Of a stretch of 64,000 nucleotides of DNA, positions 11,163 through 47,296 are shown one piece after another (positions within the stretch are counted from its first letter, which is position 1; every line of letters begins with the position of its first letter). Position numbers and translations under genes: made by a program. The notes under the pieces are model-generated. The model did no database searches, was not told where the DNA came from, and saw nothing but the letters and a program-made list of their open reading frames with translations. Source of the stretch: Escherichia coli (GTDB lineage: Bacteria > Pseudomonadota > Gammaproteobacteria > Enterobacterales > Enterobacteriaceae); NCBI RefSeq assembly GCF_001677475.2, contig NZ_CP015229.1, one strand, 5' to 3'.

Positions 11163-11597
11163 ATGCGACAAATCATCGACACCCTCGCGCAGTTACAGCG
11201 CCTGCGGGATAAATCGGTCAAGGACAAAACCGTCGAGCTGGCAAAACAGAAACAGATTTGCGCGGGCTATGACAACAATATCAAAGCATTAGGTTACCTG
11301 GTGGAGAAAACCTCTGCGGGCGCGGCGGCATCGGTGGAATCGCTGAAAAACGTCAGCGGCTACAAAGGCACCCTGCGCAAGGTGATCGCCTGGCAAGAGC
11401 AGGAAAAAACGCTGGCTAACATCAAAGCCACGCGAATGCAGAAAAACCTGACGGCGGCGGCCTGCGAAGAGAAAGTGGTGGCTTTGACGCTGGACGACAA
11501 ACGCCGCGAGCAACAAGAAAGCGCCACGGCGAAAGCGCAGAAAGCGGTGGACGATATCGCCGTGCAGTGCTGGTTGCGGCACAAATTAGCGGAGTAG
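11163..11597 (+). CDS. lfiJ: Flagellar export chaperone FliJ homolog
   Basis: 144 aa coiled-coil protein after fliI homolog. Confidence 0.7.
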   Translation: MRQIIDTLAQLQRLRDKSVKDKTVELAKQKQICAGYDNNIKALGYLVEKTSAGAAASVESLKNVSGYKGTLRKVIAWQEQEKTLANIKATRMQKNLTAAACEEKVVALTLDDKRREQQESATAKAQKAVDDIAVQCWLRHKLAE

Positions 11598-11599
11598 CC

Positions 11600-11995
11600 A
11601 TGAAAACGGTCATCACCTTCGGCACCTTCGATGTGTTTCATGTCGGTCATCTGCGCCTTTTACAACGCGCCCGCGCATTGGGCGAGCGGCTGCTGGTCGG
11701 CGTGTCGTCAGACGCCCTGAACATCGCCAAAAAGGGCAGAGCGCCGGTTTACCATCAGGATGAACGCATGGCGATTATCGCCGGGCTGGCGTGTGTGGAT
11801 GGCGTATTTCTTGAGGAATCGCTGGAGCAAAAAGCAGAGTATTTGCGGGGGTACAGTGCGGATATTTTGGTGATGGGTGATGACTGGGCAGGGAAGTTTG
11901 ACAGCTTTGCGTATATTTGTGAGGTGGTGTATTTCCCCCGCACGCCATCGGTGTCGACGACGGGGATTATTGATGTGATTAGGGCGCTTTTATAA
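11600..11995 (+). CDS. Cytidylyltransferase-like protein (glycerol-3-phosphate cytidylyltransferase TagD-like)
   Basis: GTFDVFHVGH (HxGH nucleotidyltransferase motif); ~131 aa; RBS ggag before ATG at 11600. Confidence 0.7.
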   Translation: MKTVITFGTFDVFHVGHLRLLQRARALGERLLVGVSSDALNIAKKGRAPVYHQDERMAIIAGLACVDGVFLEESLEQKAEYLRGYSADILVMGDDWAGKFDSFAYICEVVYFPRTPSVSTTGIIDVIRALL

Positions 11996-12022
11996 AGTGC
12001 TAACACCCAGATGTTTGTTTCT

Positions 12023-12103
12023 TGCCGGATGCGGCGTAAACGCCTTATCCAGCCTACAAGACGTGATCGATCCGTAGGCCTGATAAGCGAAGCGCATCAG
12101 GCA
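12023..12103. repeat. REP/BIME palindromic units
   Basis: gccggatgcggcgtaaacgccttatcc and inverted partner. Confidence 0.8.
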
Positions 12104-12113
12104 CTTCTGTGGT

Positions 12114-14558
12114 TTACCCCAACGCCTCCACAATCACCATTGCCGCCCGTTCCCCCGCCTTGCCATCCATAAACGCGTCGCAATAGTGATGGCGAATCTC
12201 CGCCAGCTTCGCCTGCAACGCCTTCCAGTCAAACGCCTCTGACAGCAGATAACGCAGTTCCGCCATATCGTGAGCGACGGGTAATATCGCGCGGATTCGC
12301 TGATCGGCGCTTTCAGGCGTGGAGTAGCTTTGCTCGCCATCGAGCAGTTCCGTCATGCCCGAAAAGTCGAGCAGGATCACCCGCTTATCAACGTGGATAG
12401 CATCGAAAATAAAGCCGCTGTTATCGGTGAGCACGTAATCGGCCTTTGCCAGTAGCGCCAGCGTGTGACGGGCGGAGTCGGTGCGCTGTTTTAAATGTCT
12501 GCGCGCCAGGGCCAGCGACGCCGCTTCTTCCGGGCGCGCGCAGGTGCCGTGGTGCAGTTTGCAAATCAGGTTCACATCACCGCTTAAGCGCCCCAATTTT
12601 TCTGCCCAGTGGGGCAGGGAGCTTAATGTGCCAAACGTGGGGGCGTAGAGCACCGTAGTTTTACGAAAATCGGGTTGGATATTTTCCGGCAACGAACGAT
12701 CGAAAGTGCCGTTATGCCAGGTGTCGAAGCGCGGGTTGCCAACCACTTTTGCATTGCCGAAATGTTCCAGCGCCTGCTGGCTGTAGTGGCTGTAACACAA
12801 AATGCGCTGATAAAAACGGTTCCAGTCGGCATGGTTCCACGTCTCTTTGGCTAAGCCGTACATGGCGCGGATGTTCACGGGGGAAAGGCCATTGAGCGCA
12901 GGCGTGTGGTAGGGGCTGACCAGGCATTTCACCCGCTGACCGTGTGCCTGCATTTCAGATAAGCGCATACCTTTAAGCTGCGGATCGACGATACTTTTTA
13001 GCGTCGCCAGCATTTCATCAAGAAACGGTTTAAACACGCGGTCGTTGATCACCAGCGTGCAACTCTGCCCCTGCGCCTGTAGGGATGTGATGATGGGGCG
13101 GTACAGCGCGTAGTGAAAGGAGGTTTCCATAAAAAAGCCGATGGTGTCGGCGATGGGTAACGCGGATGGCGTTGTGGCTACGGGCAATTTATTGAAAAAG
13201 TGACTAATATTATCAGTCACTTTTTGCTCGATATCACTAAAGCCCGGTCGCTGGTAACAAAGGCTCGGATAACAGGCCAGCCATTTGTCGGCGCGTAGCA
13301 GCGACTGCCAACACTCTTCAAGTGAGTGCTCATCGTTGCTCATCTGCTGCGCCAGTTGCGGGTAGTAGCGGCTGTTCACCAGATAAGCGCACACTTTGCG
13401 GCAGTCCCGCGCGTGCACCAGCCCCGGCAAACTTTTTAGCATCGTTCCCTGCGAAATTTCGCCGCCAAGGATCATCACCTGCCAGGGAATTTTCGCCAGG
13501 CTGGCCAGCAGAGTGTTCAGCACCTGAATATGTTTCTCCTGCTTGAGAATGACCGCGTCATCTTCCAGTAAAAGGTAGTTTTGCCAGCCCTGCCGTTGCG
13601 CCAGGCGCAGCGCCTGCAAGTGTGACTGCTGGCGGCCCCGTTGACCGTTTTCATCTTCGCAGGCGGCAAGGCGGGTGATCTTCTCAGGCGGAATATGCAG
13701 CAAAGCCAGTTCTTCACGGATCTGTTGTAAGCGATCCGGGCGTTTATCCAGATTCAGCAGAACGATCTGATCGATCACCTGATGGTTGATCGCCTGATGA
13801 TGAGTGGCGTTATGCAGACTCAGATAAGCATTGCGGAGCAGCGGATCGCGGACGATATCCGTAAGCGTCGCGTTTACTGGCGTGCTGGCCCCGAGAATAA
13901 AGTCTTTATCAAAGGTGTTGTGGCTGTGCGAGATACACAGAATCGTGCGCTCACCGGGCAGTTGTAGCGGGTTAACGCTGAAGTTATCGGTGAAACTTTT
14001 CTCTTCACCTAAATTGCAATCGTCATCGTAGCGGTGCTTTTTCAGGTAGTTACGGTGATAGCAAAAGGTGCCGTTGAGGATGTTATGCGAGCCAAAGCAG
14101 CGGCTTTTGAAAATGCGGTTGATATGGCTGTACCAGATGGGGATCTGGTCGGAACCGGAGATGAGCGCCCGGTGTTTTTGCATCATGGCGATGGTGTACG
14201 AGATTTTATCTGCCGGGTAGTAGTCGTCATCGTCCATGCAGAGGATGTATTCGCCGCGCGCCAGTTCGTTGAGCATATTACGTTTTTTGCCCAGCGGCAG
14301 TTTTTCCGGGTGATGGATGTAGCGGATATTGAAGGACTCCGGCTTGCCATTGGTCAGGCGGTCGATGATGTGTTGATGGCTTTGCGGGGAGTCGTCGAGG
14401 ATGACCAGTTCGCGGCGGTCTGCCGGGTAGTCCTGATAGCGGTACATATAGAGCAGGTACAGCAGGAATGCGCCGCGATTCCAGGTTGGCGTGACGACGC
14501 TGACAAATGGTTTTTCGCGGTGGGTGGCGAGTGTTTTGATGATGGTTGGTGTTGGCAT
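12114..14558 (-). CDS. Multidomain glycosyltransferase (GT2-like N-term, GT25-like middle, CDP-glycerol glycerophosphotransferase TagF-like C-term)
   Basis: DDDDYY (DxD) near N-term; LLEDDAV middle; VLYAPTFG (TagF-family LYAPTWR-like) C-term; start set to internal ATG 14556-14558 because upstream extension reads into a GC-rich repeat. Confidence 0.7.
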   Translation of the reverse strand: MPTPTIIKTLATHREKPFVSVVTPTWNRGAFLLYLLYMYRYQDYPADRRELVILDDSPQSHQHIIDRLTNGKPESFNIRYIHHPEKLPLGKKRNMLNELARGEYILCMDDDDYYPADKISYTIAMMQKHRALISGSDQIPIWYSHINRIFKSRCFGSHNILNGTFCYHRNYLKKHRYDDDCNLGEEKSFTDNFSVNPLQLPGERTILCISHSHNTFDKDFILGASTPVNATLTDIVRDPLLRNAYLSLHNATHHQAINHQVIDQIVLLNLDKRPDRLQQIREELALLHIPPEKITRLAACEDENGQRGRQQSHLQALRLAQRQGWQNYLLLEDDAVILKQEKHIQVLNTLLASLAKIPWQVMILGGEISQGTMLKSLPGLVHARDCRKVCAYLVNSRYYPQLAQQMSNDEHSLEECWQSLLRADKWLACYPSLCYQRPGFSDIEQKVTDNISHFFNKLPVATTPSALPIADTIGFFMETSFHYALYRPIITSLQAQGQSCTLVINDRVFKPFLDEMLATLKSIVDPQLKGMRLSEMQAHGQRVKCLVSPYHTPALNGLSPVNIRAMYGLAKETWNHADWNRFYQRILCYSHYSQQALEHFGNAKVVGNPRFDTWHNGTFDRSLPENIQPDFRKTTVLYAPTFGTLSSLPHWAEKLGRLSGDVNLICKLHHGTCARPEEAASLALARRHLKQRTDSARHTLALLAKADYVLTDNSGFIFDAIHVDKRVILLDFSGMTELLDGEQSYSTPESADQRIRAILPVAHDMAELRYLLSEAFDWKALQAKLAEIRHHYCDAFMDGKAGERAAMVIVEALG

Positions 14559-14596
14559 GGTGTTTGGGTGAGTTAAGGGGTGAATGTGATGAATGT

Positions 14597-14725
14597 GCGC
14601 GCTGATGCCCTCACCCCGACCCTCTCCCACAGGGAGAGGGAGAGAACCAGCGCCGATTTTAATACCGTGCTCGATCGGTTCCCTCGCCCCTTTGGGGAGA
14701 GGGTTAGGGTGAGGGGCAAAGCGCG
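14597..14725. repeat. GC-rich ~130-bp nested-palindrome intergenic repeat, copy 1 (boxC/RSA-type)
   Basis: ccctcaccc...ccctctcccacagggagaggg...cccctcgcccctttggggagagggttagggtgaggg; near-identical copies at ~21948 and ~24236. Confidence 0.8.
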
Positions 14726-14736
14726 CACAGAGCGAC

Positions 14737-15705
14737 TCACGTCAGCAGCGAAAACGCTGAAAGCAGCGGCTCTGCCGCACATAACGACTGAATTTGCTGG
14801 CGAATAAACAGCGCATTTTCACTGGTCCGCCAGCGTTCAAACATGGCGAAGAGGGCGAAAATATCCTCCTTCCGCAGCGGAGAACCATCCAGCGTCCATA
14901 AACTGATTAACGTGCGGATAAGATAAAAATCGCACACCAGCGGGAAATAATCCGCCCCGTCTGCCTGCCCGATCGCATCGTGGTAAACGCGGTAGATCAG
15001 GTAATTACGCAAAATCCAGGGTGAAGTGGTGAAATGCTGCTGCCAGGTAGTTTGCCACTGCGCCTGAAGCTGCTGATGTAACAGGGCTTCGCTGTTGGCG
15101 TCATGCAATGTCAGTAAAGAAACCTGCAACGGCAGCGAGGCTTTGCGCGGGCTTTCCGGCAGAATCGACCAGTCAAACGCAAAACTTCCGAGCAGCGTCA
15201 CCAGCTGGCGTGCCAGCTGTGGCACAGGTGGCAACTGGGCGAACTGTGCCTGTAGCGTACCTTTTCGCGCATGGTCGGCCAGCGCCTGCGGCAGCGTCGT
15301 CAAACGGGCCAGAGTATCGCCATTCTTGCCCGGCATTTTACTGGCGCGGGAGAGCAGGATACCGACGGCATACAGTGACAATTCCGGGGTTAAATCGGCG
15401 AGCGTAAGGGTGCTCAAAATGACCTGGTTTAATATCACATCGCGTGCGGAAAGCTCACTGGCACTCTCTTCCATAGACCGATAGGTGAGCTGTAATTCAA
15501 ACGCACTGGCGTCGTTGAGCACCGCTTCGCAGCTTTCTGGCTCTGTAAGCATCAGACTCAGGCGAATTTCATTTTTCCATACCTTGCGGACATACAAAGG
15601 CGAACCAGGATGTTGTGCAATAAATTTGCGCACAAATTCAGGTTCGTAACATTCAATAAAACTCATAGGAGGCTTCCAGTCTTTAATGCTGAACAGGAAT
15701 TGCAA
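14737..15705 (-). CDS. Hypothetical protein, Flag-2-associated
   Basis: 322-aa ORF co-oriented downstream of lfgN; no motif recognised by eye. Confidence 0.5.
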   Translation of the reverse strand: MQFLFSIKDWKPPMSFIECYEPEFVRKFIAQHPGSPLYVRKVWKNEIRLSLMLTEPESCEAVLNDASAFELQLTYRSMEESASELSARDVILNQVILSTLTLADLTPELSLYAVGILLSRASKMPGKNGDTLARLTTLPQALADHARKGTLQAQFAQLPPVPQLARQLVTLLGSFAFDWSILPESPRKASLPLQVSLLTLHDANSEALLHQQLQAQWQTTWQQHFTTSPWILRNYLIYRVYHDAIGQADGADYFPLVCDFYLIRTLISLWTLDGSPLRKEDIFALFAMFERWRTSENALFIRQQIQSLCAAEPLLSAFSLLT

Positions 15706-17750: not shown

Positions 17751-18182
17751 ATGTCATTTACTGATATCTATCAGATTTCCGGCTCGGCGATGACGGCGCA
17801 AACGCTACGTCTGAATACCGTCGCCAGTAACCTGGCGAATGCTAATGCGCCCGCCAGCAGCGAGGCGCAGGCGTATAAAGCGCGCAGCCCGGTGTTTGCG
17901 GCGGTGTATCACCACAGCTTGCTGGCGGGTACACATCGTCATGCCATTGACGGTGCCAGCGTGCAGGTGCAGGACGTGCTGCAAACCGGCGGGGCGGTGA
18001 AACGCTATGAACCGCATTCACCTCTGGCGGATGCTAACGGGGATGTCTGGTATCCCGACGTCAACGTGGTGGAACAGATGGCGGACATGATGTCGGCTTC
18101 GCGCGATTTTGAAACCAACGTCGATGTGCTCAACAACGTGAAAAGTATGCAGCAAAGTTTGCTGAAACTGGGAGAAGCCTGA
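17751..18182 (+). CDS. lfgC: Flagellar basal-body rod protein FlgC homolog
   Basis: 143 aa; SNLANANA motif. Confidence 0.85.
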   Translation: MSFTDIYQISGSAMTAQTLRLNTVASNLANANAPASSEAQAYKARSPVFAAVYHHSLLAGTHRHAIDGASVQVQDVLQTGGAVKRYEPHSPLADANGDVWYPDVNVVEQMADMMSASRDFETNVDVLNNVKSMQQSLLKLGEA

Positions 18183-20978: not shown

Positions 20979-20985
20979 CCGCACA

Positions 20986-21122
20986 TCGTAGGCCGGATAA
21001 GGCGTTCACGCCGCATCCGGCAGTTATGCGGTGGCGCCTGATGCGACGCTTTGCGTCTTATCAGGCCTACAAGCCTGTGCCCAAACCGTAGGCCGGATAA
21101 GGCGTTCACGCCGCATCCGGCA
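20986..21122. repeat. Cluster of REP/BIME palindromic units (at least three)
   Basis: Repeated ggccggataaggcgttcacgccgcatccggca and gcctgatgcgacgctttgcgtcttatcaggcctac. Confidence 0.85.
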
Positions 21123-21947: not shown

Positions 21948-22082
21948 TGGGGGCAATGTGTGGCCTGATGCCCTCACCCCGGCCCTCTCCCACAGGGAGA
22001 GGGAGAAAAGCGGCGCACGATGTAACAACGCGCACAGGTCAGTCCCCTCGCCCCTTCGGGGAGAGGGTTAGGGTGAGGGGGA
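21948..22082. repeat. GC-rich ~130-bp nested-palindrome intergenic repeat, copy 2
   Basis: Near-identical to copies at 14597 and 24236. Confidence 0.8.
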
Positions 22083-22148: not shown

Positions 22149-22814
22149 GTGAAAAATTATCTCTGGCTGGTGGCACTGCTTCCCCTGCTTAGCGGGTGTG
22201 AATCGCAGGCTATTCTGGTCAAAAAAGACGACGCATACTTTGCGCCACCGAAAACCGAAGCGCCGCCTCCGGCAGACGGGCGTGCCGGAGGCGTGTTTGA
22301 AACTGGCTACAACTGGTCGCTCACCGCCGACCGACGAGCTTACCGTGTGGGCGATATCCTGACGGTGATTCTCGAAGAATCGACCCAGTCGAGCAAACAG
22401 GCGAAAACCAACTTTGGCAAAAGCAACAGTGTCGATATCACCGCGCCAACGGTATTCGGTCACACCAAAAATAAGCTTTCCGGTTCCATCGACGCCAACC
22501 GCGACTTTGACGGCAGCGCCACCTCCCAGCAGCAGAATAGCCTGCGCGGGGAGATCACCGTTTCCGTCCATGCGGTGCAGCCCAACGGCATCCTGGAAAT
22601 TCGCGGCGAGAAATGGCTCACCCTCAACCAGGGTGATGAGTACATCCGCTTGAGCGGCCTGGTACGCGCCGATGATATCCAGAACGACAACTCGGTTTCC
22701 TCCCAGCGGATCGCCGATGCCCGCATCTCCTATGCCGGACGCGGCGCGTTAAGCGACGCCAACGCCGCAGGTTGGCTGACGCGGCTGTTTAACCATCCTC
22801 TGTTCCCGATTTAA
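22149..22814 (+). CDS. lfgH: Flagellar L-ring lipoprotein FlgH homolog
   Basis: Lipobox LLSGC after signal peptide; GTG start. Confidence 0.85.
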
Positions 22815-23929
22815 TGCCGGAGAGTGCAATGCAAAACTGGATAAAGACGGTGATGATCGCCGTAAGCCTGGTGCTGCCCGGCGTGGCGCTGGCGCAATCG
22901 CTGGAGTCGCTGGTCAACGTACAGGGCGTGCGTGAAAACCAACTGGTCGGCTATAGCCTGGTGGTCGGCCTTGACGGCACTGGCGATAAAAACCAGGTCA
23001 AATTCACTAACCAGACCATCACCAATATGCTGCGCCAGTTTGGCGTGCAACTGCCGAATAAAATCGACCCGAAGGTGAAAAACGTCGCCGCGGTGGCGGT
23101 GAGCGCCACGCTGCCGCCGATGTACTCGCGCGGGCAAACCATTGACGTCACCGTCTCGTCGATTGGCGATGCCAAAAGTATTCGCGGCGGCACTTTGCTG
23201 CTGACCCAACTGCACGGCGCAGATGGCGAAGTTTATGCCCTGGCGCAGGGTAGCGTGGTGGTCGGCGGGATGAATGCCACCGGGGCCAGCGGCTCAAGCG
23301 TAACGGTTAATACGCCAACCGCCGGGTTAATTCCCAACGGCGCGACGGTGGAGCGCGAGATCCCCAGCGATTTTCAGATGGGCGATACCATCACCCTCAA
23401 CCTGAAACGTCCGTCGTTTAAAGATGCCAACCACATTGCAGCAGCGATCAACGCCTCGTTTGGCGGCATCGCCACCGCGCAGAGTTCCACCAACGTTACC
23501 GTGCGTGCCCCCACCAGCCCCGGCGCGCGGGTGGCGTTTATGTCGCAACTGGATGATGTGCAGGTGCAGGCGGAGAAAATCCGCGCCCGCGTGGTGTTTA
23601 ACTCACGCACCGGCACGGTGGTAATGGGTGACGGTATCGCGTTGCATGCGGCGGCGGTGTCGCACGGCAGTCTTACTGTCTCGATTAACGAAACCAGCAA
23701 CGTCAGCCAGCCGAATGCCTTTGCCGGTGGGCGCACGGCGGTGACGCCGCAGAGCAATATCGCGGTGAATCATGCGCGCCCTGGCGTGGTGAGCTTGCCG
23801 GAGTCGAGCAGCCTGAAAACGCTGGTGAATGCCCTGAACAGTTTAGGCGCAACGCCGGACGACATTATGTCGATTTTGCAGGCGCTGCATGAAGCGGGCG
23901 CGCTGGATGCCGACCTGGAGGTGATCTGA
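22814..23929 (+). CDS. lfgI: Flagellar P-ring protein FlgI homolog
   Basis: 371 aa with signal peptide. Confidence 0.85.
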
Positions 23930-24228
23930 TGAAAGTGAACGCCAGCGGTGGGATTGACGGCAGCGACGCGTTAATGGGGCCGAAGGTTCAGGCCAATGAT
24001 ATCAAGCAGGCCGCGGAACAGTTCGAGGCGATTTTTTTACGCAACATGTTGAAAGAGATGCGTAAAACCAACGAGTTGTTTGATTCGAAAGATAACCCAT
24101 TTAACAGCGATTCGGTGCGCATGATGCAGGGGTTTTATGACGATGAGTTGTGTAACACCCTGGCGCAGCAGCACGGGATTGGGATTGCGGCGATGATTGT
24201 AAAGCAGTTGTCGCCGAAGGGGAAATGA
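23929..24228 (+). CDS. lfgJ: Short FlgJ-like rod-binding protein (no muramidase domain)
   Basis: 99 aa, position between flgI and flgK homologs. Confidence 0.65.
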   Translation: MKVNASGGIDGSDALMGPKVQANDIKQAAEQFEAIFLRNMLKEMRKTNELFDSKDNPFNSDSVRMMQGFYDDELCNTLAQQHGIGIAAMIVKQLSPKGK

Positions 24229-24235
24229 GGGGAGG

Positions 24236-24366
24236 TGCACGCTGATGCCCTCACCCCGGCCCTCTCACTAGGAGAGGGAGCAGACTGGTGCCGTATTTAA
24301 CAATGTGCTCGATCGGTCCCCTCTCCCTTGAGGGAGAGGGTTAGGGTGAGGGGGCAATGCGCCCAC
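24236..24366. repeat. GC-rich ~130-bp nested-palindrome intergenic repeat, copy 3
   Basis: Near-identical to copies at 14597 and 21948. Confidence 0.8.
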
Positions 24367-24436
24367 CATTACCCACTTAAGAATCCACAACCTAACGCCG
24401 CTTTTAACCGGCACGATTTACCGGTAAGGATCCAAC

Positions 24437-25804
24437 ATGGACATGATTAACATCGGCTACAGCGGCGCATCAACGGCGCAGGTGGAGCTGAACGTCACGG
24501 CGCAAAACACCGCTAACGCCATGACCACGGGCTATACCCGCCAGGTGGCGGAGATCAGCACCATCGGTGCCAGCGGCGGTTCGCCGAACAGCGCCGGTAA
24601 CGGCGTACAGGTGGACAGCATTCGCCGCGTCTCCAACCAGTATCAGGTGTGGTATGCCGCCAGCGATTACGGCTATTACAGCACCCAGCAGGGGTATCTC
24701 AGCCAACTGGAAGCGGTACTAAGCGACGATAACAGCAGCCTGAGCGGCGGCTTCGATAACTTCTTCGCCGCCCTTAACGAAGCGACCACCAGCCCCGATG
24801 ATTCCGCCCTGCGCGAGCAGGTGATCAGCGAAGCCGGGGCGCTGTCGTTGCGTATCGATAACACGCTCGATTACGTCGACTCGCAAAGCACGGAAATCAT
24901 CAGCCAGCAGCAGGCGATGGTGTCGCAAATCAATACGCTCACCAGCGGCATCGCCAGCTATAACCAGCAAATCGCTCAGGCCGAAGCCAACGGCGATAAC
25001 GCCTCCGCGCTGTACGACGCCCGCGACCAGATGGTGGAAGAACTCAGCGGGATGATGGATGTGCAGGTCAATATCGACGACCAGGGCAACTACAACGTCA
25101 CCCTGCAAAACGGTCAGCCGCTGGTGAGCGGGCAGCAAAGCTCGACCATCGCGCTGGAAACCAACGCCGATGGCACGCCGACCATGTCGCTGACGTTCGC
25201 TGGCACCACCTCGACGATGACCACCGACACCGGCGGTTCATTAGGCGCACTGTTTGATTATCAAAACGATGTGCTGTCGCCGCTAACCGACACCATCAAC
25301 AGCATGGCGTCGCAGTTCGCCGATGCGGTCAACAACCAGCTGGCGCAGGGCTACGATCTCAACGGTAACCCCGGCGAGCCGCTGTTTATTTACGATGCCA
25401 GTAATGCCGATGGCCCGCTGACCGTCAACCCGGATATCACCGCCGACGAACTGGCGTTCTCCAGTTCGCCGGACGAAAGCGGCAACAGCGACAACCTGCA
25501 GGCGCTGATCAACATCTCCACCGAACCGCTGGAGATAGCCAACCTTGGCAGCGTGACGGTTGGGCAGGCGTGCTCGTCAATCATCAGCAATATCGGCATT
25601 TACAGTCAGCAAAATCAGACGGAAGTCGATGCCGCGTCCAATGTCTATTCCGCAGCGCAAAACCAGCAGAGCAGCGTCAGCGGCGTCAGCATGGACGAAG
25701 AGGCGGTGAACCTGATCACTTATCAACAAATTTATGAAGCCAATCTGAAAGTCATTTCCGCCGGGGCCGAGATTTTCGATTCGGTGCTGGAAATGTGCAG
25801 CTAA
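24437..25804 (+). CDS. lfgK: Flagellar hook-associated protein 1 FlgK homolog
   Basis: 455 aa; flg N-terminal helix motif. Confidence 0.8.
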   Translation: MDMINIGYSGASTAQVELNVTAQNTANAMTTGYTRQVAEISTIGASGGSPNSAGNGVQVDSIRRVSNQYQVWYAASDYGYYSTQQGYLSQLEAVLSDDNSSLSGGFDNFFAALNEATTSPDDSALREQVISEAGALSLRIDNTLDYVDSQSTEIISQQQAMVSQINTLTSGIASYNQQIAQAEANGDNASALYDARDQMVEELSGMMDVQVNIDDQGNYNVTLQNGQPLVSGQQSSTIALETNADGTPTMSLTFAGTTSTMTTDTGGSLGALFDYQNDVLSPLTDTINSMASQFADAVNNQLAQGYDLNGNPGEPLFIYDASNADGPLTVNPDITADELAFSSSPDESGNSDNLQALINISTEPLEIANLGSVTVGQACSSIISNIGIYSQQNQTEVDAASNVYSAAQNQQSSVSGVSMDEEAVNLITYQQIYEANLKVISAGAEIFDSVLEMCS

Positions 25805-26764: not shown

Positions 26765-27742
26765 ATGCAGGTCGGACTTACATCTTCATCACTCGCCACC
26801 GGCGGGGCGCATAGCGCTGCGGTATCGTCGTCAACCGTTGCGCCCACTCAGGCGGTGCGGCAAAAGCTCCCGGCGACGGCGAGTGAATATCCGGCCTCGC
26901 CGCTGATTACCACTCGCCCGCAGCGTTACAGCGTGCAGCTTAACGATCAGCTCACCACGTTGCAGCAGGCGGATCACTATCTCGGGCAACTGGAGCAGCA
27001 GTTGCTCGATTACCGTCACAGCCAGCGTAAGGGCGGGCAGGCGCAGAGTACGGCGCTGATGCAGATGCTGGACAAACGCACCGCGCTTTCCGGCGGTGCG
27101 GTGGACCGTCAGTTGCAGCCGGTGTTGCAGGGGGAAGCGCGGGTGACCTTTCACTCGCCGGATCTGGCGAGTCTGGTGCACAACCCCACGCCGGGAACGC
27201 GGATGTTCAGTGTCTCTGACGGGCGGCAGACCCAGCTTTCGGCGGTGATGCTGTCTGAGGATGACAGCGCTGGGCAGTACCAGACGCGGCTGACCAACGC
27301 CCTGCGCCGCGTGGGCGTGCAACTGCATCAGCAAGCGGACGGCATCAGCTTCTCCACCACTGAAAAACAGTGGCCCCATATCGAGCGCACCTTAAGCGTG
27401 CGCACCGATGGTGATAAGTCGGCGTTTATGCCGCTAAAAACCTTTGCCGAACCATCACAGGCGGACCGCTTTGCGCAAAGCCTGCAACAGGGTGGGGCGG
27501 GGATTTCCCAGACGTTAGAAGGCATTAATCAGCAGCGCGCGCAGATGGCGGTGCAGCAGGAAAAAGCCCGCCAGTTGATCGACGGCATGTCACGCTTCCC
27601 GCAAACGGAAAACGCGGTGCAGGCATCGGAGAACCTTGGCGGCGTGCTGGATAGCGCCAATCATAACTATCATGTTTTATTGCAGGCGGTGAACGGTCAG
27701 GCGCGAATTTCCAGCCAGACGGTGAGGAATTTATTGGGGTAA
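26765..27742 (+). CDS. lafW: Lateral flagellar protein LafW-like, function unknown
   Basis: 325 aa, Gln-rich; position after flgL homolog. Confidence 0.5.
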   Translation: MQVGLTSSSLATGGAHSAAVSSSTVAPTQAVRQKLPATASEYPASPLITTRPQRYSVQLNDQLTTLQQADHYLGQLEQQLLDYRHSQRKGGQAQSTALMQMLDKRTALSGGAVDRQLQPVLQGEARVTFHSPDLASLVHNPTPGTRMFSVSDGRQTQLSAVMLSEDDSAGQYQTRLTNALRRVGVQLHQQADGISFSTTEKQWPHIERTLSVRTDGDKSAFMPLKTFAEPSQADRFAQSLQQGGAGISQTLEGINQQRAQMAVQQEKARQLIDGMSRFPQTENAVQASENLGGVLDSANHNYHVLLQAVNGQARISSQTVRNLLG

Positions 27743-27747
27743 TTATC

Positions 27748-27788
27748 GGTTGGCCGGATAAGACGCCTTTAGCGTCGCATCCGGCATA
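27748..27788. repeat. REP palindromic unit
   Basis: ggccggataagacgcctttagcgtcgcatccggca. Confidence 0.75.
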
Positions 27789-27800
27789 TATTGGCACTTG

Positions 27801-28643
27801 TCAGCATTTCTGCACAGTATTTAACAACTTCTCTAAATTCTGATACATCGCGCTATTAATATCGCTGTTCTGCCACTCATCCACATTAAAGGTTAATTGC
27901 CAGCTGCCGTTGCACTGGTTACGCAGAACAATATCGCTTTCCAGTCGGTTACGAACATATTTATAATAGGTTGTCATTGTCATATTATGCGCTGACAATA
28001 AATTATCGAGTTTGTCTTTTCCTGGTGCAAGGGTTTGTGAAAGTAACGGTGCGGAGTTATTTTCTTTTCCAGAACTAAGATGAAATATTTTTATTCTTGG
28101 ACTGTTAATTGACTCTTTTACCAGTTGCGGGGCGTCAGGTGTATTTTTCAAGTGTGAATATCCCACGGTCGAGCCAATAAATATAACAGCTGCGGCTAAC
28201 GCTACCCCCATTATTCCTTTATGTTTTTTTCTAACAGGCACAGGCGGTGTTGTCGAAGATATCTCTTCTGGCACAGTTCCCTGTATCTGGTCGGTAATAA
28301 TCATCGCTTCTGCAGGCGATGACTCCGGCAAAGACACATACTCTTTATTGCACAAGTAACCTTTCTTCGGAATTGTTTTAATAATGTTCTGTTGTTTGCC
28401 ATCATCGTCGATAGCAACCCGCAACGCATGGATCGCCGTCGGCAGGCTGTTTCCGCCGACAATGCGGTTCTTCCATACTTCGGCACATAAATAAGATCGC
28501 GATAAAACCACATCGGCATTTTTTGCTAATGTTTCCAGCAAAATAAAATGGTATTCGCCGAGACGACGTGTTTCACCCGTTTCGCAATGTATTAAGGCAT
28601 TAAGCGACGGGTCCATCCGCCAGTTGTTGATAATAATACTCAT
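27801..28643 (-). CDS. lafZ: ToxR/CadC-like membrane-anchored transcriptional regulator (winged-helix DNA-binding domain + single TM)
   Basis: OmpR/PhoB-type wHTH-like N-term, TM segment GVALAAAVIFIGSTVGY; start set to internal ATG (MSIIINNW...). Confidence 0.6.
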   Translation of the reverse strand: MSIIINNWRMDPSLNALIHCETGETRRLGEYHFILLETLAKNADVVLSRSYLCAEVWKNRIVGGNSLPTAIHALRVAIDDDGKQQNIIKTIPKKGYLCNKEYVSLPESSPAEAMIITDQIQGTVPEEISSTTPPVPVRKKHKGIMGVALAAAVIFIGSTVGYSHLKNTPDAPQLVKESINSPRIKIFHLSSGKENNSAPLLSQTLAPGKDKLDNLLSAHNMTMTTYYKYVRNRLESDIVLRNQCNGSWQLTFNVDEWQNSDINSAMYQNLEKLLNTVQKC

Positions 28644-36439: not shown

Positions 36440-37495
36440 ATGCGTAAAATCATTCATGTGGATATGGACTGCTTTTTCGCCGCGGTGGAGATGCGCGACA
36501 ATCCCGCCCTGCGCGATATCCCTATTGCTATTGGCGGCAGCCGCGAACGTCGGGGGGTGATCAGCACCGCCAATTATCCTGCGCGTAAATTTGGCGTACG
36601 TAGCGCTATGCCGACAGGGATGGCGCTCAAATTATGCCCACATCTCACCTTGCTTCCGGGGCGCTTTGACGCCTACAAAGAAGCCTCAAATCATATCCGT
36701 GAAATCTTCTCGCGCTACACCTCGCGCATTGAACCGTTGTCACTGGATGAAGCCTATCTCGATGTCACCGATAGCGTCCATTGCCACGGTTCTGCGACCC
36801 TCATCGCCCAGGAAATCCGCCAGACGATCTTCAACGAGCTGCAACTGACGGCGTCTGCGGGCGTGGCACCAGTAAAGTTTCTCGCCAAAATCGCCTCCGA
36901 CATGAATAAACCCAACGGCCAGTTTGTGATTACGCCGGCAGAAGTTCCGGCATTTTTACAAACCTTGCCGCTGGCAAAAATTCCCGGCGTCGGCAAAGTC
37001 TCGGCGGCAAAACTGGAAGCGATGGGGCTACGGACCTGCGGTGATGTGCAAAAGTGTGATCTGGTGATTCTGCTTAAACGCTTTGGCAAATTTGGCCGCA
37101 TTTTGTGGGAGCGTAGTCAGGGGATTGACGAGCGCGACGTTAACAGTGAACGGTTGCGAAAATCCGTCGGCGTGGAACGCACGATGGCGGAAGATATTCA
37201 TCACTGGTCTGAATGTGAAGCGATTATCGAGCGGCTGTATCCTGAACTTGAACGCCGTCTGGCAAAGGTAAAACCTGATTTACTGATTGCCCGCCAGGGG
37301 GTGAAATTAAAGTTCGATGATTTTCAGCAAACCACTCAGGAGCATGTCTGGCCGCGGCTGAATAAAGCTGACTTAATCGCCACCGCGCGTAAAACCTGGG
37401 ATGAACGCCGTGGCGGGCGCGGTGTGCGTCTGGTGGGGCTGCATGTGACGTTGCTTGACCCGCATATGGAAAGACAACTGGTGCTGGGATTATGA
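36440..37495 (+). CDS. dinB: DNA polymerase IV
   Basis: [23 protein letters not shown]-family polymerase N-terminus. Confidence 0.95.
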
Positions 37496-37546
37496 TGTAT
37501 ACTATTATGTCTATTCTGGTGTGCATTATTATGAGGGGATCACTGT

Positions 37547-37840
37547 ATGCATCGAATTCTCGCTGAAAAATCGGTCAATATCACTGAGTTACGTAAAAAC
37601 CCAGCTAAATACTTTATTGATCAACCGGTTGCGGTTCTTTCTAATAATCGCCCCGCAGGATATCTCTTAAGTGCCAGCGCATTTGAAGCGTTAATGGACA
37701 TGCTTGCTGAACAAGAGGAGAAAAAACTGGTGAAGGCGCGCTTCCGTCCGAGTGCCGCAAGATTAGAGGAAATTACACGCCGCGCTGAACAATATCTTAA
37801 TGATATGACGGATGATGATTTCAATGACTTTAAGGAATAA
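37547..37840 (+). CDS. yafN: Antitoxin YafN (Phd/YefM family)
   Basis: 97 aa, operon with yafO downstream of dinB. Confidence 0.85.
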   Translation: MHRILAEKSVNITELRKNPAKYFIDQPVAVLSNNRPAGYLLSASAFEALMDMLAEQEEKKLVKARFRPSAARLEEITRRAEQYLNDMTDDDFNDFKE

Positions 37841-37842
37841 GG

Positions 37843-38241
37843 ATGCGGGTATTCAAAACAAAACTTATTCGCCTGCAACTTACAGCAGAGGAACTTGATG
37901 CGTTAACGGCGGATTTTATTTCCTATAAGCGTGACGGTGTTTTGCCAGATATATTTGGTCGCGATGCACTCTACGACGACTCGTTTACCTGGCCATTAAT
38001 CAAATTTGAGCGAGTTGCTCATATTCATCTGGCAAATGTGAATAATCCATTTCCGTCACAGTTGCGCCAATTCAGCAGAACGAATGACGAAGCGCATTTG
38101 GTATATTGTCAGGGTGCGTTTGATGAGCAAGCATGGTTGCTCATTGCCATTCTGAAACCTGAACCTCATAAACTGGCTCGAGATAACAACCAAATGCATA
38201 AAATTGGGAAAATGGCAGAAGCGTTTCGCATGCGTTTTTGA
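37843..38241 (+). CDS. yafO: Toxin YafO (ribosome-dependent mRNA interferase)
   Basis: 132 aa immediately after yafN. Confidence 0.85.
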   Translation: MRVFKTKLIRLQLTAEELDALTADFISYKRDGVLPDIFGRDALYDDSFTWPLIKFERVAHIHLANVNNPFPSQLRQFSRTNDEAHLVYCQGAFDEQAWLLIAILKPEPHKLARDNNQMHKIGKMAEAFRMRF

Positions 38242-38250
38242 ATTTATATT

Positions 38251-38703
38251 ATGAATAACATACAAATAAGAAACTATCAGCCTGGCGATTTTCAGCAACT
38301 ATGCGCTATTTTCCTTAGAGCGGTTACGATGACCGCCAGTCAGCATTATTCACCACAACAAATTGCCGCCTGGGCGCAGATTGACGAATCTCGCTGGAAG
38401 GATAAACTCGCGAAATCACAAGTGCGGGTTGCCATCATTAATGCACAACCGGTTGGTTTTATTTCCCGCATTGAACATTATATCGATATGTTATTTGTTG
38501 ACCCTGAATACACCCGCCGTGGGGTTGCCAGCGCTTTGTTAAAACCTTTGATTAAGTCTGAATCCGAACTTACAGTGGACGCCAGCATAACCGCAAAACC
38601 ATTTTTTGAACGTTATGGTTTTCAGACAGTTAAGCAGCAGCGCGTTGAATGCCGGGGAGCGAGGTTTACTAATTTTTATATGCGTTATAAACAGCAACAT
38701 TAA
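38251..38703 (+). CDS. yafP: GNAT family N-acetyltransferase YafP
   Basis: 150 aa, acetyl-CoA binding motif (RRGVASALL). Confidence 0.85.
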   Translation: MNNIQIRNYQPGDFQQLCAIFLRAVTMTASQHYSPQQIAAWAQIDESRWKDKLAKSQVRVAIINAQPVGFISRIEHYIDMLFVDPEYTRRGVASALLKPLIKSESELTVDASITAKPFFERYGFQTVKQQRVECRGARFTNFYMRYKQQH

Positions 38704-40814: not shown

Positions 40815-40828
40815 AGCAAATCAAATAA

Positions 40829-42286
40829 TTACTTCGCCGGAATTTCTTTCAGCAGTTCAGTCAGCAGTGTCCAGTAATGACCTACGCTTTCGATGTGAAC
40901 TTGCTCATCCGGAGAGTGTGGACCGGTGATAGTTGGCCCGATAGACACCATGTCCATTTCCGGATACGGTTTTTTGAACAGACCACATTCCAGGCCCGCG
41001 TGGATAATCTGGATGTTCGGCGTCTTGTTGAACAGGCGCTGATAGGTTTCACGTACCAGATGCATCACCGGAGAATTAGCGTCCGGCTGCCAGCCAGGAT
41101 ATGCGCCTTTCGCTTCGGTTTTCGCGCCAGCCAATTTACCCAGCGAATCCAGCATGCTCACCACGTAGTCTTTACCGCTGTCGATCAGAGAACGGATCAG
41201 ACAGTGAATTTCTACGTTATTGTCAGTCATGGTCACCACACCGACGTTCAGGGAGGTTTCGACCACACCTTTTGCCACGTCGGAGTTGCGGATCACACCG
41301 TTCGGGGTGGCGTTCAGTAGACGAATAAAGGTATCGCGAGATTTCGCAATCAGGGCAGCTTTATCGTTCGCTACAGAGTCCAGCAACAAGGCCAGATTTT
41401 TCTCTTTCTCTGCCAGCTCGTTTTTCAGGATATCCTGATAGGTATTCACCAGAGATTTCAGGGCGTCGACTTTATCAGCTGCGACAGCAATGGTCGCAAA
41501 GGCTTCACGCGGGATGGCGTTACGCAGTGTGCCGCCGTTGAAATCAATAAGACGCAGGTCCAGTTCTTCTGCATGACCCGCCAGGAAGCGCACCAGCAGT
41601 TTGTTGGCATTACCCAGGCCAACGTGGATTTCACCGCCGGAGTGACCGCCTTTCAGACCTTTTAAGGTTAACTTGAAGGTTTCAAAACCAGCTGGAACCG
41701 CTTCACGATCTAAATGCAGGTTGGAGGTGAAGTCGATACCCCCCGCACAACCCATGTAGATTTCACCTTCTTCTTCGGAGTCGGTGTTAATCAAAATATC
41801 AGCCTGCAACCAGTTGCTCTGTAAGCCGAACGCACCGTCCATACCTGCTTCTTCGGTCATGGTCAGCAGCACTTCCAGCGGGCCGTGAACCACGTTTTCG
41901 TCAGCCAGAACCGCCAGTGCAGAGGCCATACCAATGCCGTTATCCGCACCCAGCGTGGTACCGCGCGCTTTAACCCATTCGCCATCAATATAAGGCTGGA
42001 TAGGATCTTTAGTGAAGTCATGCACGGTGTCGTTATTTTTCTGCGGCACCATATCGAGGTGGGCCTGCAAGACGACCGGTTTACGATTTTCCATACCTGC
42101 GGTAGCAGGTTTACGAATCAGGATATTACCTACCTGATCGCGTTCGACATGGAAACCTTTCTCTTTTGCCCAACCAACAATGTATTCAGCGAGTTGCTCT
42201 TCATGATAGGACGGGTGAGGAATAGAACAGATTTTGGCAAAAATATCCCACAGCGGCTGTGGAGATAATTGAGACAGTTCAGACAC
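40829..42286 (-). CDS. pepD: Cytosol non-specific dipeptidase (aminoacyl-histidine dipeptidase)
   Basis: 485 aa M20 family peptidase. Confidence 0.9.
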   Translation of the reverse strand: MSELSQLSPQPLWDIFAKICSIPHPSYHEEQLAEYIVGWAKEKGFHVERDQVGNILIRKPATAGMENRKPVVLQAHLDMVPQKNNDTVHDFTKDPIQPYIDGEWVKARGTTLGADNGIGMASALAVLADENVVHGPLEVLLTMTEEAGMDGAFGLQSNWLQADILINTDSEEEGEIYMGCAGGIDFTSNLHLDREAVPAGFETFKLTLKGLKGGHSGGEIHVGLGNANKLLVRFLAGHAEELDLRLIDFNGGTLRNAIPREAFATIAVAADKVDALKSLVNTYQDILKNELAEKEKNLALLLDSVANDKAALIAKSRDTFIRLLNATPNGVIRNSDVAKGVVETSLNVGVVTMTDNNVEIHCLIRSLIDSGKDYVVSMLDSLGKLAGAKTEAKGAYPGWQPDANSPVMHLVRETYQRLFNKTPNIQIIHAGLECGLFKKPYPEMDMVSIGPTITGPHSPDEQVHIESVGHYWTLLTELLKEIPAK

Positions 42287-42546
42287 GTTAAGTCTCCTTG
42301 TCGATCACCCGCAAAACAGTATTGCAGGTCACAGGGTTAGCAGAAAATGTTGTCAACACAAGACAGGCTTGCGAGATATGTTTGAGAATACCACTTTATC
42401 CCGCGTCAGGGAGAGGCAGTGCGTAAAAAGACGCGGACTCATGTGAAATACTGGTTTTTAGTGCGCCAGATCTCTATAATCTCGCGCAACCTATTTTCCC
42501 CTCGAACACTTTTTAAGCCGTAGATAAACAGGCTGGGACACTTCAC

Positions 42547-43005
42547 ATGAGCGAAAAATACATCGTCACCTGGGACATGTTGCAGATCCATGCACGTAAA
42601 CTCGCAAGCCGACTGATGCCTTCTGAACAATGGAAAGGCATTATTGCCGTAAGCCGTGGCGGTCTGGTACCGGGTGCGTTACTGGCGCGTGAACTGGGTA
42701 TTCGTCATGTCGATACCGTTTGTATTTCCAGCTACGATCACGACAACCAGCGCGAGCTTAAAGTGCTGAAACGCGCAGAAGGCGATGGCGAAGGCTTCAT
42801 CGTTATTGATGACTTGGTGGATACCGGTGGTACTGCGGTTGCTATTCGAGAAATGTATCCAAAAGCGCACTTTGTCACCATCTTCGCAAAACCGGCCGGT
42901 CGCCCGCTGGTTGATGATTATGTTGTTGATATCCCGCAAGATACCTGGATCGAACAGCCGTGGGATATGGGCGTCGTATTCGTCCCGCCAATCTCTGGTC
43001 GCTAA
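42547..43005 (+). CDS. gpt: Xanthine-guanine phosphoribosyltransferase
   Basis: 152 aa; PRPP-binding motif [11 protein letters not shown]. Confidence 0.95.
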
Positions 43006-43096
43006 TCTTTTCAACGCCTGGCACTGCCGGGCGTTGTTCTTTTTAACTTCAGGCAGGTTACAATAGTTTCCAGTAAGTATTCTGGAGGCTGCATCC

Positions 43097-44341
43097 ATGA
43101 CACAGGCAAACCTGAGCGAAACCCTGTTCAAACCCCGCTTTAAACATCCTGAAACCTCGACGCTAGTTCGCCGCTTTAATCACGGCGCACAACCGCCTGT
43201 GCAGTCGGCCCTTGATGGTAAAACCATCCCTCACTGGTATCGCATGATTAACCGTTTGATGTGGATCTGGCGCGGCATTGACCCACGTGAAATCCTCGAC
43301 GTCCAGGCGCGTATTGTGATGAGCGATGCCGAACGTACCGACGATGATTTATACGATACGGTGATTGGCTACCGCGGCGGCAACTGGATTTATGAGTGGG
43401 CTACCCAGGCGATGGTGTGGCAACAAAAAGCCTGTGCGGAAGAAGATCCGCAACTCAGTGGTCGACACTGGCTGCATGCGGCTACGTTGTACAACATTGC
43501 TGCCTATCCTCATCTAAAAGGAGATGACCTGGCCGAGCAAGCGCAGGCTTTGTCAAACCGCGCCTATGAAGAGGCCGCTCAGCGTCTGCCGGGCACGATG
43601 CGGCAGATGGAGTTTACCGTACCCGGCGGTGCGCCCATCACCGGCTTTTTGCATATGCCGAAAGGCGATGGCCCGTTCCCGACAGTATTAATGTGTGGTG
43701 GTCTGGATGCGATGCAGACGGACTATTACAGCCTGTATGAACGTTATTTTGCGCCGCGCGGCATTGCGATGCTGACTATTGATATGCCGTCGGTGGGCTT
43801 TTCTTCAAAATGGAAGCTCACCCAGGACTCCAGCCTGTTGCATCAGCACGTCTTAAAGGCGCTGCCTAACGTACCGTGGGTAGATCACACTCGCGTCGCG
43901 GCCTTTGGTTTCCGTTTCGGCGCTAACGTTGCCGTACGTCTGGCATACCTTGAATCGCCGCGTCTGAAAGCGGTTGCCTGTCTTGGTCCGGTAGTTCATA
44001 CCCTGTTGAGTGATTTTAAGTGCCAGCAACAGGTGCCGGAAATGTATCTTGACGTTCTGGCGAGTCGTTTGGGGATGCATGATGCTTCCGACGAAGCGTT
44101 ACGCGTGGAGCTGAATCGCTATTCATTAAAAGTGCAAGGATTGCTGGGACGTCGTTGCCCAACGCCAATGTTATCAGGCTACTGGAAGAACGATCCGTTC
44201 AGCCCGGAAGAGGACTCACGCTTAATCACCTCATCATCTGCTGACGGTAAATTATTAGAGATCCCATTTAACCCGGTGTATCGGAATTTTGACAAAGGCC
44301 TTCAGGAAATCACAGACTGGATCGAAAAACGATTGTGTTAA
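43097..44341 (+). CDS. frsA: Esterase FrsA (fermentation/respiration switch protein)
   Basis: 414 aa alpha/beta hydrolase. Confidence 0.9.
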
Positions 44342-44800
<459 letters not shown>

Positions 44801-44809
44801 GTGAAATGT

Positions 44810-44830
44810 GCCGGATGCATCACATCCGGC
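44810..44830. terminator. Bidirectional terminator hairpin between crl and phoE
   Basis: gccggatg-catcac-atccggc perfect stem. Confidence 0.6.
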
Positions 44831-44838
44831 AATAATCA

Positions 44839-45894
44839 TTAAAACTGATACGTCATCCCAACCGCGACAATATCATCATTATTAATATTCAATTTGTTAT
44901 CGCTATCCAGTTGGTTGATTTTATAATCAACAAACGCTGACATATTTTTGTTGAAATAATATGTAGCACCGACGTCGATATAATTGACCAGATCTTCATC
45001 ACCGATACCTTCAATATCTTTCCCTTTCGATAAGACATAACCCAGCGATGGACGCAGACCAAAGTCAAACTGATATTGAGCGACCGCTTCAAAGTTCTGT
45101 GTCTTATTGGCAAAGCCGCCAGTTATTGGCGTCATTTTGCGTGTTTCAGAATAGAAAGTTGCCAGATAAATATTATTGGCATCGTATTTCAGACCTGTTG
45201 CCCATGCTTCTGCACGCTTGCCTGTGCCACGGCTTTGCAGATTCTGCTCGTTGGTGCGATCTGAGTTGGTATAGGCCCCACTAATGGCGAAATCGCTGCC
45301 GCCAAAGTCATATGTCAATGACGTGCCGAAGCCATCGCCGTTTTGCTTTTTAACGTCGCGGTTTTCGTTTTTCCCTTGATATTGCAGGGTTAAGTTCAGG
45401 CCATCGATAACGCCGAAGAAGTCGGTGTTCCGATACGTCGCCAGACCGCTGGCGCGTTTGGTCATGAAGTTGTCGGTCTGCGCCGAGGAGTCGCCACCAA
45501 ATTCCGGGAACATATCGGTCCAGGCCTCAACGTCATACAACGCGCCCAGGTTACGACCATAATCGAAAGAACCCAAATCTTTATATTTCAACCCGGCAAA
45601 AGCGAGACGCGTTTTTTGCTGTGCAGTATCACTCTCCGCTTTATTACCGGCAAACTCCGCTTCCCACCGACCATAACCCGTCAGTTGATCGTTAATTTGT
45701 GTTTCGCCTTTAAAACCAAAACGGATATAACTCTGGTCGCCATCTTTACTGTCGTTATCACTCATATAATGCATGGCTTTAACTTTGCCATAGACATCCA
45801 GTTTATTACCGTCTTTGTTATATATTTCTGCGGCCTGTACGGATGCAGATGCCACAATGCCCATCACCACTAATGCCAGAGTGCTCTTTTTCAT
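44839..45894 (-). CDS. phoE: Outer membrane phosphoporin PhoE
   Basis: Signal peptide [21 protein letters not shown]; porin C-terminus ...GMTYQF. Confidence 0.95.
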
Positions 45895-45966
45895 TTTCAT
45901 TCCTGATTTTAATTAACGCGCGAATATTCAGCGGGAGAGTCCCGTTGAAAACAGGAAAGTTTTTAA

Positions 45967-47285: not shown

Positions 47286-47296
47286 GGAGCAGGCCG

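Follow-up and report, generated by a model that had tools for sequence, protein, structure and literature searches.

A FlgJ homologue consisting of the rod-binding domain alone in the Flag-2 flagellar locus of Escherichia coli

Introduction

Every flagellum has to cross the cell wall, and the cell must not lyse in the process; the textbook answer of the gammaproteobacteria is a FlgJ protein equipped with its own muramidase. The Flag-2 locus of Escherichia coli raises the question of how a flagellar rod gets through the wall when the gene at the place of flgJ encodes a product of only 99 amino acids. We studied this gene, lfgJ, in a stretch of 64,000 nucleotides from an E. coli genome (assembly GCF_001677475.2, contig NZ_CP015229.1), hereafter called the window, in which core E. 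coli genes come after the flagellar locus Flag-2, a secondary system of the lateral type.

The existence of the protein is not new. LfgJ bears a correct name in RefSeq, the Flag-2 locus was reportedly described for E. coli 042 by Ren et al. in 2005, and single-domain FlgJ proteins are established in Rhodobacter and Borrelia. Experiments on any Flag-2 LfgJ were not found in the searchable literature, and in the two comparative papers of De Maayer neither FlgJ nor LfgJ is mentioned. What we add is the uniformity of the short form over 79 species, the finding that lateral-type relatives carry a glucosaminidase (GH73) or an SLT fusion at this position, and an argument against a supply of lytic activity by the primary flagellar system, Flag-1. 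The plasticity of FlgJ, which was known already, is thereby extended to the lateral-type lineage.

Our preferred reading, to which we assign a probability of roughly 0.7, is that LfgJ acts as the cap or scaffold of the Flag-2 rod and that the wall would be opened in trans, most likely by housekeeping lytic transglycosylases. Flag-2 is a gammaproteobacterial system without the muramidase module in the best-studied bacterial host, and it could therefore reveal a co-opted housekeeping wall enzyme together with its targeting.

Results

[quoted passage not shown]

The locus is collinear with the Flag-2 locus of E. coli 042, and all of its visible genes look intact, lfhA being truncated by the left edge of the window. 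The gene lfgC, which is frameshifted in 042, is intact here. About 1272 complete E. coli genomes contain the region. The core genes from pepD to proA share 98.3% identity with E. coli, and the stretch from Flag-2 to prfH (1-40.8 kb) exhibits 92-95% identity to 042 and at most 94.3% to any species representative that was recovered. The Flag-2 allele of the window differs by approximately 6% at the DNA level from that of 042 and likewise from those of all species representatives recovered.

lfgJ is an intact gene under selection

The gene lfgJ resides on the plus strand at 23929..24228 (ATG to TGA, stop codon included) and encodes a single-domain FlgJ of 99 amino acids, which comprises the rod-binding scaffold only. 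It is preceded by lfgI (22814..23929, plus strand), the flgI of Flag-2 encoding the P-ring protein, which was identified by its open reading frame of 371 codons and by the FlgI annotation of the syntenic 042 gene (98% amino acid identity). The TGA of lfgI and the ATG of lfgJ have one base in common (TGATG), and a GGAGG Shine-Dalgarno sequence, read directly from the sequence, lies within the end of lfgI at 23917..23921 on the same strand, 7 nt before the lfgJ start codon. By its sequence, this overlap along with the GGAGG motif has the typical arrangement for translational coupling of the two genes. The next gene after lfgJ is lfgK (24437..25804, plus strand) for hook-associated protein 1. Given the order flgI, lfgJ, flgK, lfgJ is the positional orthologue of flgJ.

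The LfgJ proteins of the window and of 042 (RefSeq WP_000867281.1, "rod-binding protein", also 99 amino acids) differ by two substitutions (98% identity) and have equal lengths and stop positions. The genes show 9.5 synonymous and 3.5 non-synonymous differences, and the resulting dN/dS of 0.08 indicates strong purifying selection. Since the short gene was encountered at the same position in 042 and in 79 other species-level loci (see below), its occurrence is far beyond chance. Thus, lfgJ is an intact, conserved and selected orthologue of flgJ containing the scaffold domain only, within an intact operon.

LfgJ contains a rod-binding domain and a variable N-terminus

The domain search that had been proposed in the initial annotation yielded PF10135 (Rod-binding) as the sole Pfam domain of LfgJ, with an E value of 3.1e-14 and 53.7 bits against a cut-off of 25.1. 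It covers residues 42-93, corresponding to 24052..24207 on the plus strand. TIGR02541, the model of full-length FlgJ, was matched at positions 20-90 of 294 only, with 67.9 bits compared to a cut-off of 193. No match to PF01832 (GH73 glucosaminidase) was obtained in the Pfam scan of the protein. LfgJ thus shares with canonical FlgJ the PF10135 domain and the position between flgI and flgK and lacks the C-terminal GH73 domain. The initial annotation, which had placed a FlgJ homologue of 99 amino acids consisting of the rod-binding part alone at exactly these coordinates, is borne out by PF10135 and by the partial TIGR02541 match. By its length, its single PF10135 domain, its place in a flagellar cluster and the selection acting on it, the protein has the sequence features of the single-domain class of rod-binding proteins.

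The top NCBIfam matches of LfgJ were short profiles named "peptidoglycan hydrolase", all of which scored under their cut-offs. NF009349 ("PRK12708.1-1", a profile of 97 amino acids) was matched at positions 19-97 of 97 with 87.9 bits (cut-off 141, E value 5e-25). Judged by these scores, LfgJ is a related short form and not an equivalog of NF009349. The names "lateral flagellar peptidoglycan hydrolase" and "peptidoglycan hydrolase" are wrong for these short proteins, as they contain no hydrolase domain.

The N-terminal approximately 20 residues of LfgJ (23929..23988, plus strand) are variable and predicted to be disordered: the AlphaFold2 model gave pLDDT values below 50 at residues 1-18, where column conservation was low as well. 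From general knowledge of flagellar substrates, we infer that this segment may be the region of the flagellar type III export signal. The conserved helical core spans residues ~22-94, with helices predicted at 22-51, 61-80 and 86-94 (overall pLDDT 65, i.e. moderate confidence). Among 46 homologues, the columns of F32, E33, R45, D71, G85 and Q93 were invariant. A solved structure of a rod-binding domain was not detected by PDB sequence searches, carried out with LfgJ as query and with a profile of 14 sequences.

No remnant of a lytic domain is present downstream of lfgJ

Ten dual-domain FlgJ probes matched the window at 23953-24234 via their N-terminal ~30-110 residues only. With 55 probes of C-terminal lytic domains, no match was obtained in the 64-kb window at E<0.01, and an SLT probe gave no match to any of its six-frame open reading frames. 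A palindromic REP/MITE-like element (24242..24354), which is non-coding and without any remnant of a lytic domain, fills the spacer of 208 bp between lfgJ and lfgK. As the short spacer is occupied by the repeat, there is no space for a decayed domain of ~150 amino acids. A second copy of the element resides at 21965-22081, and E. coli 042 carries another REP-type insert in its lfgJ-lfgK spacer. A sigma-28-like motif upstream of lfgK (24378-24404) was dismissed since it was at chance level, 9 of 100 shuffles being as good; scans for sigma-70 promoters and for terminators were both empty.

The short form is uniform in enterobacterial Flag-2-type loci

All 104 close homologues of LfgJ were short; those of full length comprised ~99-106 amino acids, and none contained a lytic domain. 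For most of them, PF10135 was the only precomputed Pfam domain. They originate from Escherichia, Citrobacter, Leclercia, Scandinavium, Dryocola, Pseudescherichia and other genera. When 1.84 billion cluster representatives were searched exhaustively with a profile, 5378 matches were obtained. The seven outgroup clusters that came nearest, with identities of 43-54%, had lengths of 103-132 amino acids throughout. Three outgroup loci (from Buttiauxella, Tatumella and one more) were viewed in context; all of them were of the Flag-2 type with the order flgI, short flgJ, flgK, flgL, lafW. The order flgI-flgJ-flgK was likewise common to the loci L002-L005.

To cover the diversity of species, a lateral-type FlgI alignment was scanned against one genome per GTDB species, by which 355 loci were found and 80 of them analyzed. 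In 79 of these 80 species-level loci of the lateral or Flag-2 type, the gene following flgI encoded the rod-binding domain only, with at most ~41 codons past the domain, and neither a glucosaminidase nor an SLT sequence was detected in the ~17 kb of each of the 79 loci. The HMM termed "gluco", which was used on the species loci, represents mixed C-termini, mostly GH73 and a few SLT, and is therefore really a generic model of lytic tails. Yersinia pestis, Budvicia, Pragia, Tatumella, Rosenbergiella, Kluyvera and Enterobacter are represented among the 79 loci. One locus carries the label Chryseobacterium and is probably mislabelled. Tblastn matches just 3′ of the lfgJ homologue in the loci L017, L036 and L040 turned out to be artefacts, as they contained internal stop codons; these three marginal matches trace back to probe P0165, the tail of which is out-of-frame flgK.

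Together with the missing remnant and the dN/dS value, the short form in 104 homologues and 79 species confirms that the muramidase domain is genuinely missing from LfgJ. A full-length FlgJ frame revealed by resequencing, which the initial annotation had named as the result that would speak against it, is effectively excluded by these comparative data.

Lytic domains are fused to FlgJ at the same position in two relatives

The syntenic lateral locus of Plesiomonas shigelloides, which is functional (PMC4481668), encodes a FlgJ of 328 amino acids with the architecture Rod-binding+Glucosaminidase. In Stutzerimonas nosocomialis (locus L085), FlgJ comprises up to 383 codons and is composed of Rod-binding+SLT (PF01464, E value 6.6e-24). 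This locus is also of the lateral or Flag-2 type and contains flgA, flgB-L, a lafW homologue, lafA and lafK. The FlgE, FlgK, FlgL and LafA proteins of the window are closer to those of Stutzerimonas than to those of Plesiomonas. For FlgI, the identity to the protein of the window is 62% in Plesiomonas and 59% in Stutzerimonas, while the rod-binding domains share 38% and 43% identity with LfgJ, respectively. Hence, Plesiomonas fuses a glucosaminidase and Stutzerimonas an SLT domain, whereas LfgJ possesses neither of them. Two metagenomic relatives of the Stutzerimonas type were rod-binding only (L089) and a broken Rod-binding/SLT gene (L088). In a set of 141 FlgJ sequences (the 140 nearest representatives and that of L085), 54 contained a glucosaminidase and six an SLT domain, the others neither.

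One chromosomal position thus holds three architectures, and as far as the sequences tell, the lytic module is interchangeable. By a Rosetta-stone argument, the fusions in Plesiomonas and Stutzerimonas suggest that the rod-binding domain is the carrier of a separable wall-cutting module. We had considered a single loss of the glucosaminidase at the base of the enterobacterial Flag-2 lineage and withdrew it, because the Stutzerimonas domain is SLT and L089 is rod-binding only. With three architectures at one position, the enterobacterial form may be a loss, or the fused forms may be independent gains. The word "reduced" in the initial annotation is right for the short form itself; the loss that it implies does not follow, since the lytic domains of the nearest outgroups are of two different kinds and some relatives of these outgroups are short as well.

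No lytic enzyme is apparent in the cluster or elsewhere in the window

In RefSeq, the syntenic locus of 042 is annotated without any gene for a lytic enzyme, and Pfam and NCBIfam scans of unannotated open reading frames of the cluster did not disclose one either. Ten poorly annotated or accessory open reading frames were inspected, among which Pfam recognized a glycosyltransferase, a cytidylyltransferase, a winged-helix regulator (LafZ), MotB/OmpA (LafU), FliL, FliK and flagellin. LafW and a product of 321 amino acids were the two without a Pfam match. The conserved gene lafW (26765..27742, plus strand), which lies downstream of lfgL, had no NCBIfam match as well. The AlphaFold2 model of LafW (pLDDT 71) has an alpha/beta domain in its center and long helices at the termini, and its best Foldseek matches in the PDB were flagellins and HAP3 (E value 7.5e-7). 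As the predicted fold is similar to flagellins and hook-associated proteins and no lysozyme-like or SLT folds were matched, LafW was rejected as a candidate for a hidden lytic enzyme. The open reading frame of 321 amino acids (14737-15702, minus strand) resembles the flagellin lysine methylase FliB and resides in a variable region that is missing from other loci.

In the remainder of the window (dinB to paoC), no wall hydrolase was found. The genes yafL (C40 peptidase) and dpaA, which in 042 are located just upstream of lfhA and lie outside the window, were set aside; we take them to be core genes of E. coli K-12, present also in strains devoid of Flag-2. The claim that no lytic gene is visible in the cluster was thus corroborated by the 042 annotation, the domain scans and the fold of LafW alike. 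A dedicated lytic transglycosylase encoded by the cluster, as in the FlgJ-SltF type of system, is absent from the window and from the 79 enterobacterial loci.

Discussion

How, then, may the Flag-2 rod pass the wall? The following scheme for the export of LfgJ, its role as a cap, and the nature of the lytic enzyme and the way it is recruited is inferred. The protein would be made from the lfgB-J operon by translational coupling to lfgI and exported by the Flag-2 type III apparatus via its disordered N-terminus. The helical rod-binding domain would seat it on the tip of the growing rod (LfgB/C/F/G), from which it may be displaced at the switch from rod to hook. LfgJ itself probably has no peptidoglycan-cleaving activity, and the wall would most likely be cut in trans by one or several housekeeping lytic transglycosylases that belong to the SLT type and are exported via Sec. 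Such enzymes may be recruited or exploited by LfgJ or by the rod, similar to SltF in Rhodobacter sphaeroides and BB0259 in Borrelia. We favor the co-option of an SLT-type enzyme because the single-domain FlgJ proteins studied bind SltF and BB0259, because a close lateral-type relative fuses SLT to the same carrier domain, and because the FlgJ of Flag-1 cannot be a general source. A more specific version, by which the rod-binding-only form is fixed across the enterobacterial Flag-2 lineage and LfgJ specifically recruits a free-standing host lytic transglycosylase of the SLT family, is put forward tentatively, as a possibility on which we would not bet. If it held true, E. coli, Citrobacter or Yersinia would provide a tractable gammaproteobacterial model of a type III machine that borrows a Sec-exported enzyme.

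A recruited enzyme may not be needed at all if the rod crosses random openings which arise from growth and turnover of the wall, LfgJ being a pure polymerisation cap. This seems unlikely to us, even though it has some points in its favor. According to a statement in PMC8781033, which cites Hirano et al. 2001, Salmonella without FlgJ muramidase activity swims after long incubation, suggesting that a dedicated enzyme may help and is not strictly required; moreover, not one linked lytic gene occurred across 79 enterobacterial Flag-2-type loci. On the other hand, the single-domain FlgJ systems studied so far each need a specific lytic transglycosylase that binds FlgJ (SltF, BB0259), and the retention of a fused lytic module by close lateral-type relatives points to an advantage of targeted lysis. 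The same statement on Salmonella bears on the initial annotation, which had held that the lytic activity "must" come from elsewhere: the lack of a lytic gene in the cluster agrees with it, but the necessity was a deduction that the swimming of such cells calls into question.

Somewhat less probable still is that the wall is opened in trans by the dual-domain FlgJ of Flag-1. E. coli normally also has Flag-1, whose FlgJ comprises ~313 amino acids and is encoded outside the window. The FlgJ muramidase, however, acts tethered to the tip of its own rod after export via its own apparatus, and the rod-binding domain has diverged strongly between the two systems. While most Flag-2 hosts have Flag-1 too, De Maayer et al. 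2020 (PMC6993521) reported that three species, Tatumella ptyseos ATCC 33301, Budvicia aquatica and Pragia fontium, lack Flag-1 and are nonetheless motile. The Flag-2 loci of Tatumella (L078), Budvicia (L064) and Pragia (L070) contain a short FlgJ only, so that the three species reported to be motile in this way have the rod-binding domain alone.

That the cluster conceals an unrecognized lytic gene, e.g., lafW or another unannotated open reading frame, is very improbable. Two products without Pfam match exist, and Flag-2-type loci, that of Stutzerimonas among them, have a conserved lafW right after lfgKL, but the flagellin- and HAP3-like fold of LafW, the FliB-like nature of the 321-amino-acid product from a variable region, and the flagellar annotation of all remaining cluster genes argue against it. 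Finally, a truncation or a recent pseudogene of full-length flgJ (by frameshift, nonsense mutation or assembly error) has nothing more than the short length itself on its side and is discounted by the length and stop identical to those of 042, the low dN/dS, the 104 homologues and 79 species with the short form, the lack of a lytic remnant in any frame and the downstream spacer of just 208 bp.

The reading of LfgJ as a rod scaffold whose wall-cutting activity is probably provided in trans can be set beside three known systems. Compared to the canonical dual-domain FlgJ (Rod-binding and GH73) of Salmonella and of E. coli Flag-1, which is also encoded after flgI, the homologous N-terminal domain is present in LfgJ, while the entire C-terminal glucosaminidase domain of ~160 amino acids is missing. 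In the Fla1 system of R. sphaeroides, a single-domain FlgJ binds the Sec-exported SltF (PMC7277832). Like LfgJ, the R. sphaeroides protein has no muramidase domain, and there it is a rod scaffold for which a separate enzyme opens the wall (PMC7277832). The sltF gene sits in the flgG operon, whereas neither the Flag-2 cluster nor the rest of the 64-kb window contains a gene for an SLT or another lytic enzyme. Borrelia burgdorferi is phylogenetically remote, and the spirochaete flagellum is periplasmic and needs FlgJ for hook and filament, not for the rod. Nevertheless, it resembles the case of LfgJ in that its FlgJ is a scaffold-only, single-domain protein which binds an SLT enzyme, BB0259 (PMC8517470), and in Borrelia this paired enzyme of the SLT family is unlinked (PMC8517470).

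Mosaic divergence of the window

The divergence of the window is mosaic. Positions 1-40800, which comprise the Flag-2 genes together with dinB, yafNOP and rtcB/prfH, shared 92-95% identity with Escherichia coli 042, and the best identity of this part to any species representative recovered was 94.3%, whereas from pepD onward (40826-48600) the identity to E. coli amounted to 98.3-98.4%. The low values in the first part compared with those of the second suggest that the Flag-2 allele is old, divergent or recombined and resides within an E. coli background.

Farther downstream, a small defence islet (49918-55133) adjoins tRNA-Thr. The islet encodes a reverse transcriptase with a length of 1068 aa, which PADLOC assigned to the DRT RT_UG5-nitrilase type (E=0), together with an AbiEi/AbiEii pair. 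Integrase fragments border it on both sides in a related genome of E. coli.

Putative flagellin modification genes and LafW

The region between lfiJ and lfgN is variable. In the window it contains a gene on the minus strand for a FliB-like flagellin lysine methylase (14737-15702), whose match remained below the threshold. The stretch 11567-14630 of the same region encodes a cytidylyltransferase as well as a glycosyltransferase of the GT2 type that is 837 aa long. Judging from this gene content, the lateral flagellin appears to be modified.

LafW (26765-27742) did not match any Pfam family, while the fold matches of its structural model were flagellin and HAP3. The gene is kept at the 3′ side of lfgL in enterobacterial Flag-2 loci, and a homologue with 24% identity occupies this position in Stutzerimonas. 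The lateral locus of Plesiomonas does not contain LafW. The protein may be an additional axial or junction component.

FlgJ variants and related loci

In Stutzerimonas nosocomialis (L085, 9109-10260) the lateral-type FlgJ consists of a rod-binding domain fused to an SLT lytic transglycosylase domain. Among the relatives, one version (L089) possesses the rod-binding domain only, and another (L088) is a rod-binding/SLT version that is frameshifted or partly deleted. A Citrobacter-like Flag-2 locus, whose FlgI is 79% identical to that of the window, was recovered from a record labelled Chryseobacterium sp. 18061 (L020), a genus of the Bacteroidota. Since the adjacent match was a Citrobacter isolate of the same project, this is probably due to mislabelling or contamination.

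Comparison with E. coli 042

In E. coli 042 two peptidoglycan-acting genes, dpaA (yafK) and yafL (C40 peptidase), are located less than 3 kb upstream of lfhA (L006, the 042 record, 36780-38570; outside the window). Based on E. coli K-12, we take both to be core genes that also occur in strains devoid of Flag-2, and thus their linkage to this locus is probably coincidental.

Two copies of a palindromic REP/MITE-like element of approximately 115 nt (CTGATGCCCTCACCCCGGCCCTCTC...GGGAGAGGGTTAGGGTGAGGGGG) reside in the lfgG-lfgH spacer (21965-22081) and the lfgJ-lfgK spacer (24242-24354) of the window; a REP pair lies at 20982-21022 and 21082-21122. The lfgJ-lfgK spacer of 042 contains a REP/BIME-type insert unlike this element. 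Furthermore, 042 carries a RelE/ParE-HTH toxin-antitoxin pair between lafW and lafZ, which is missing in the window (27742-27801). All Flag-2 genes inside the window appear to be intact, including lfgC (17751-18182), which is frameshifted in 042.
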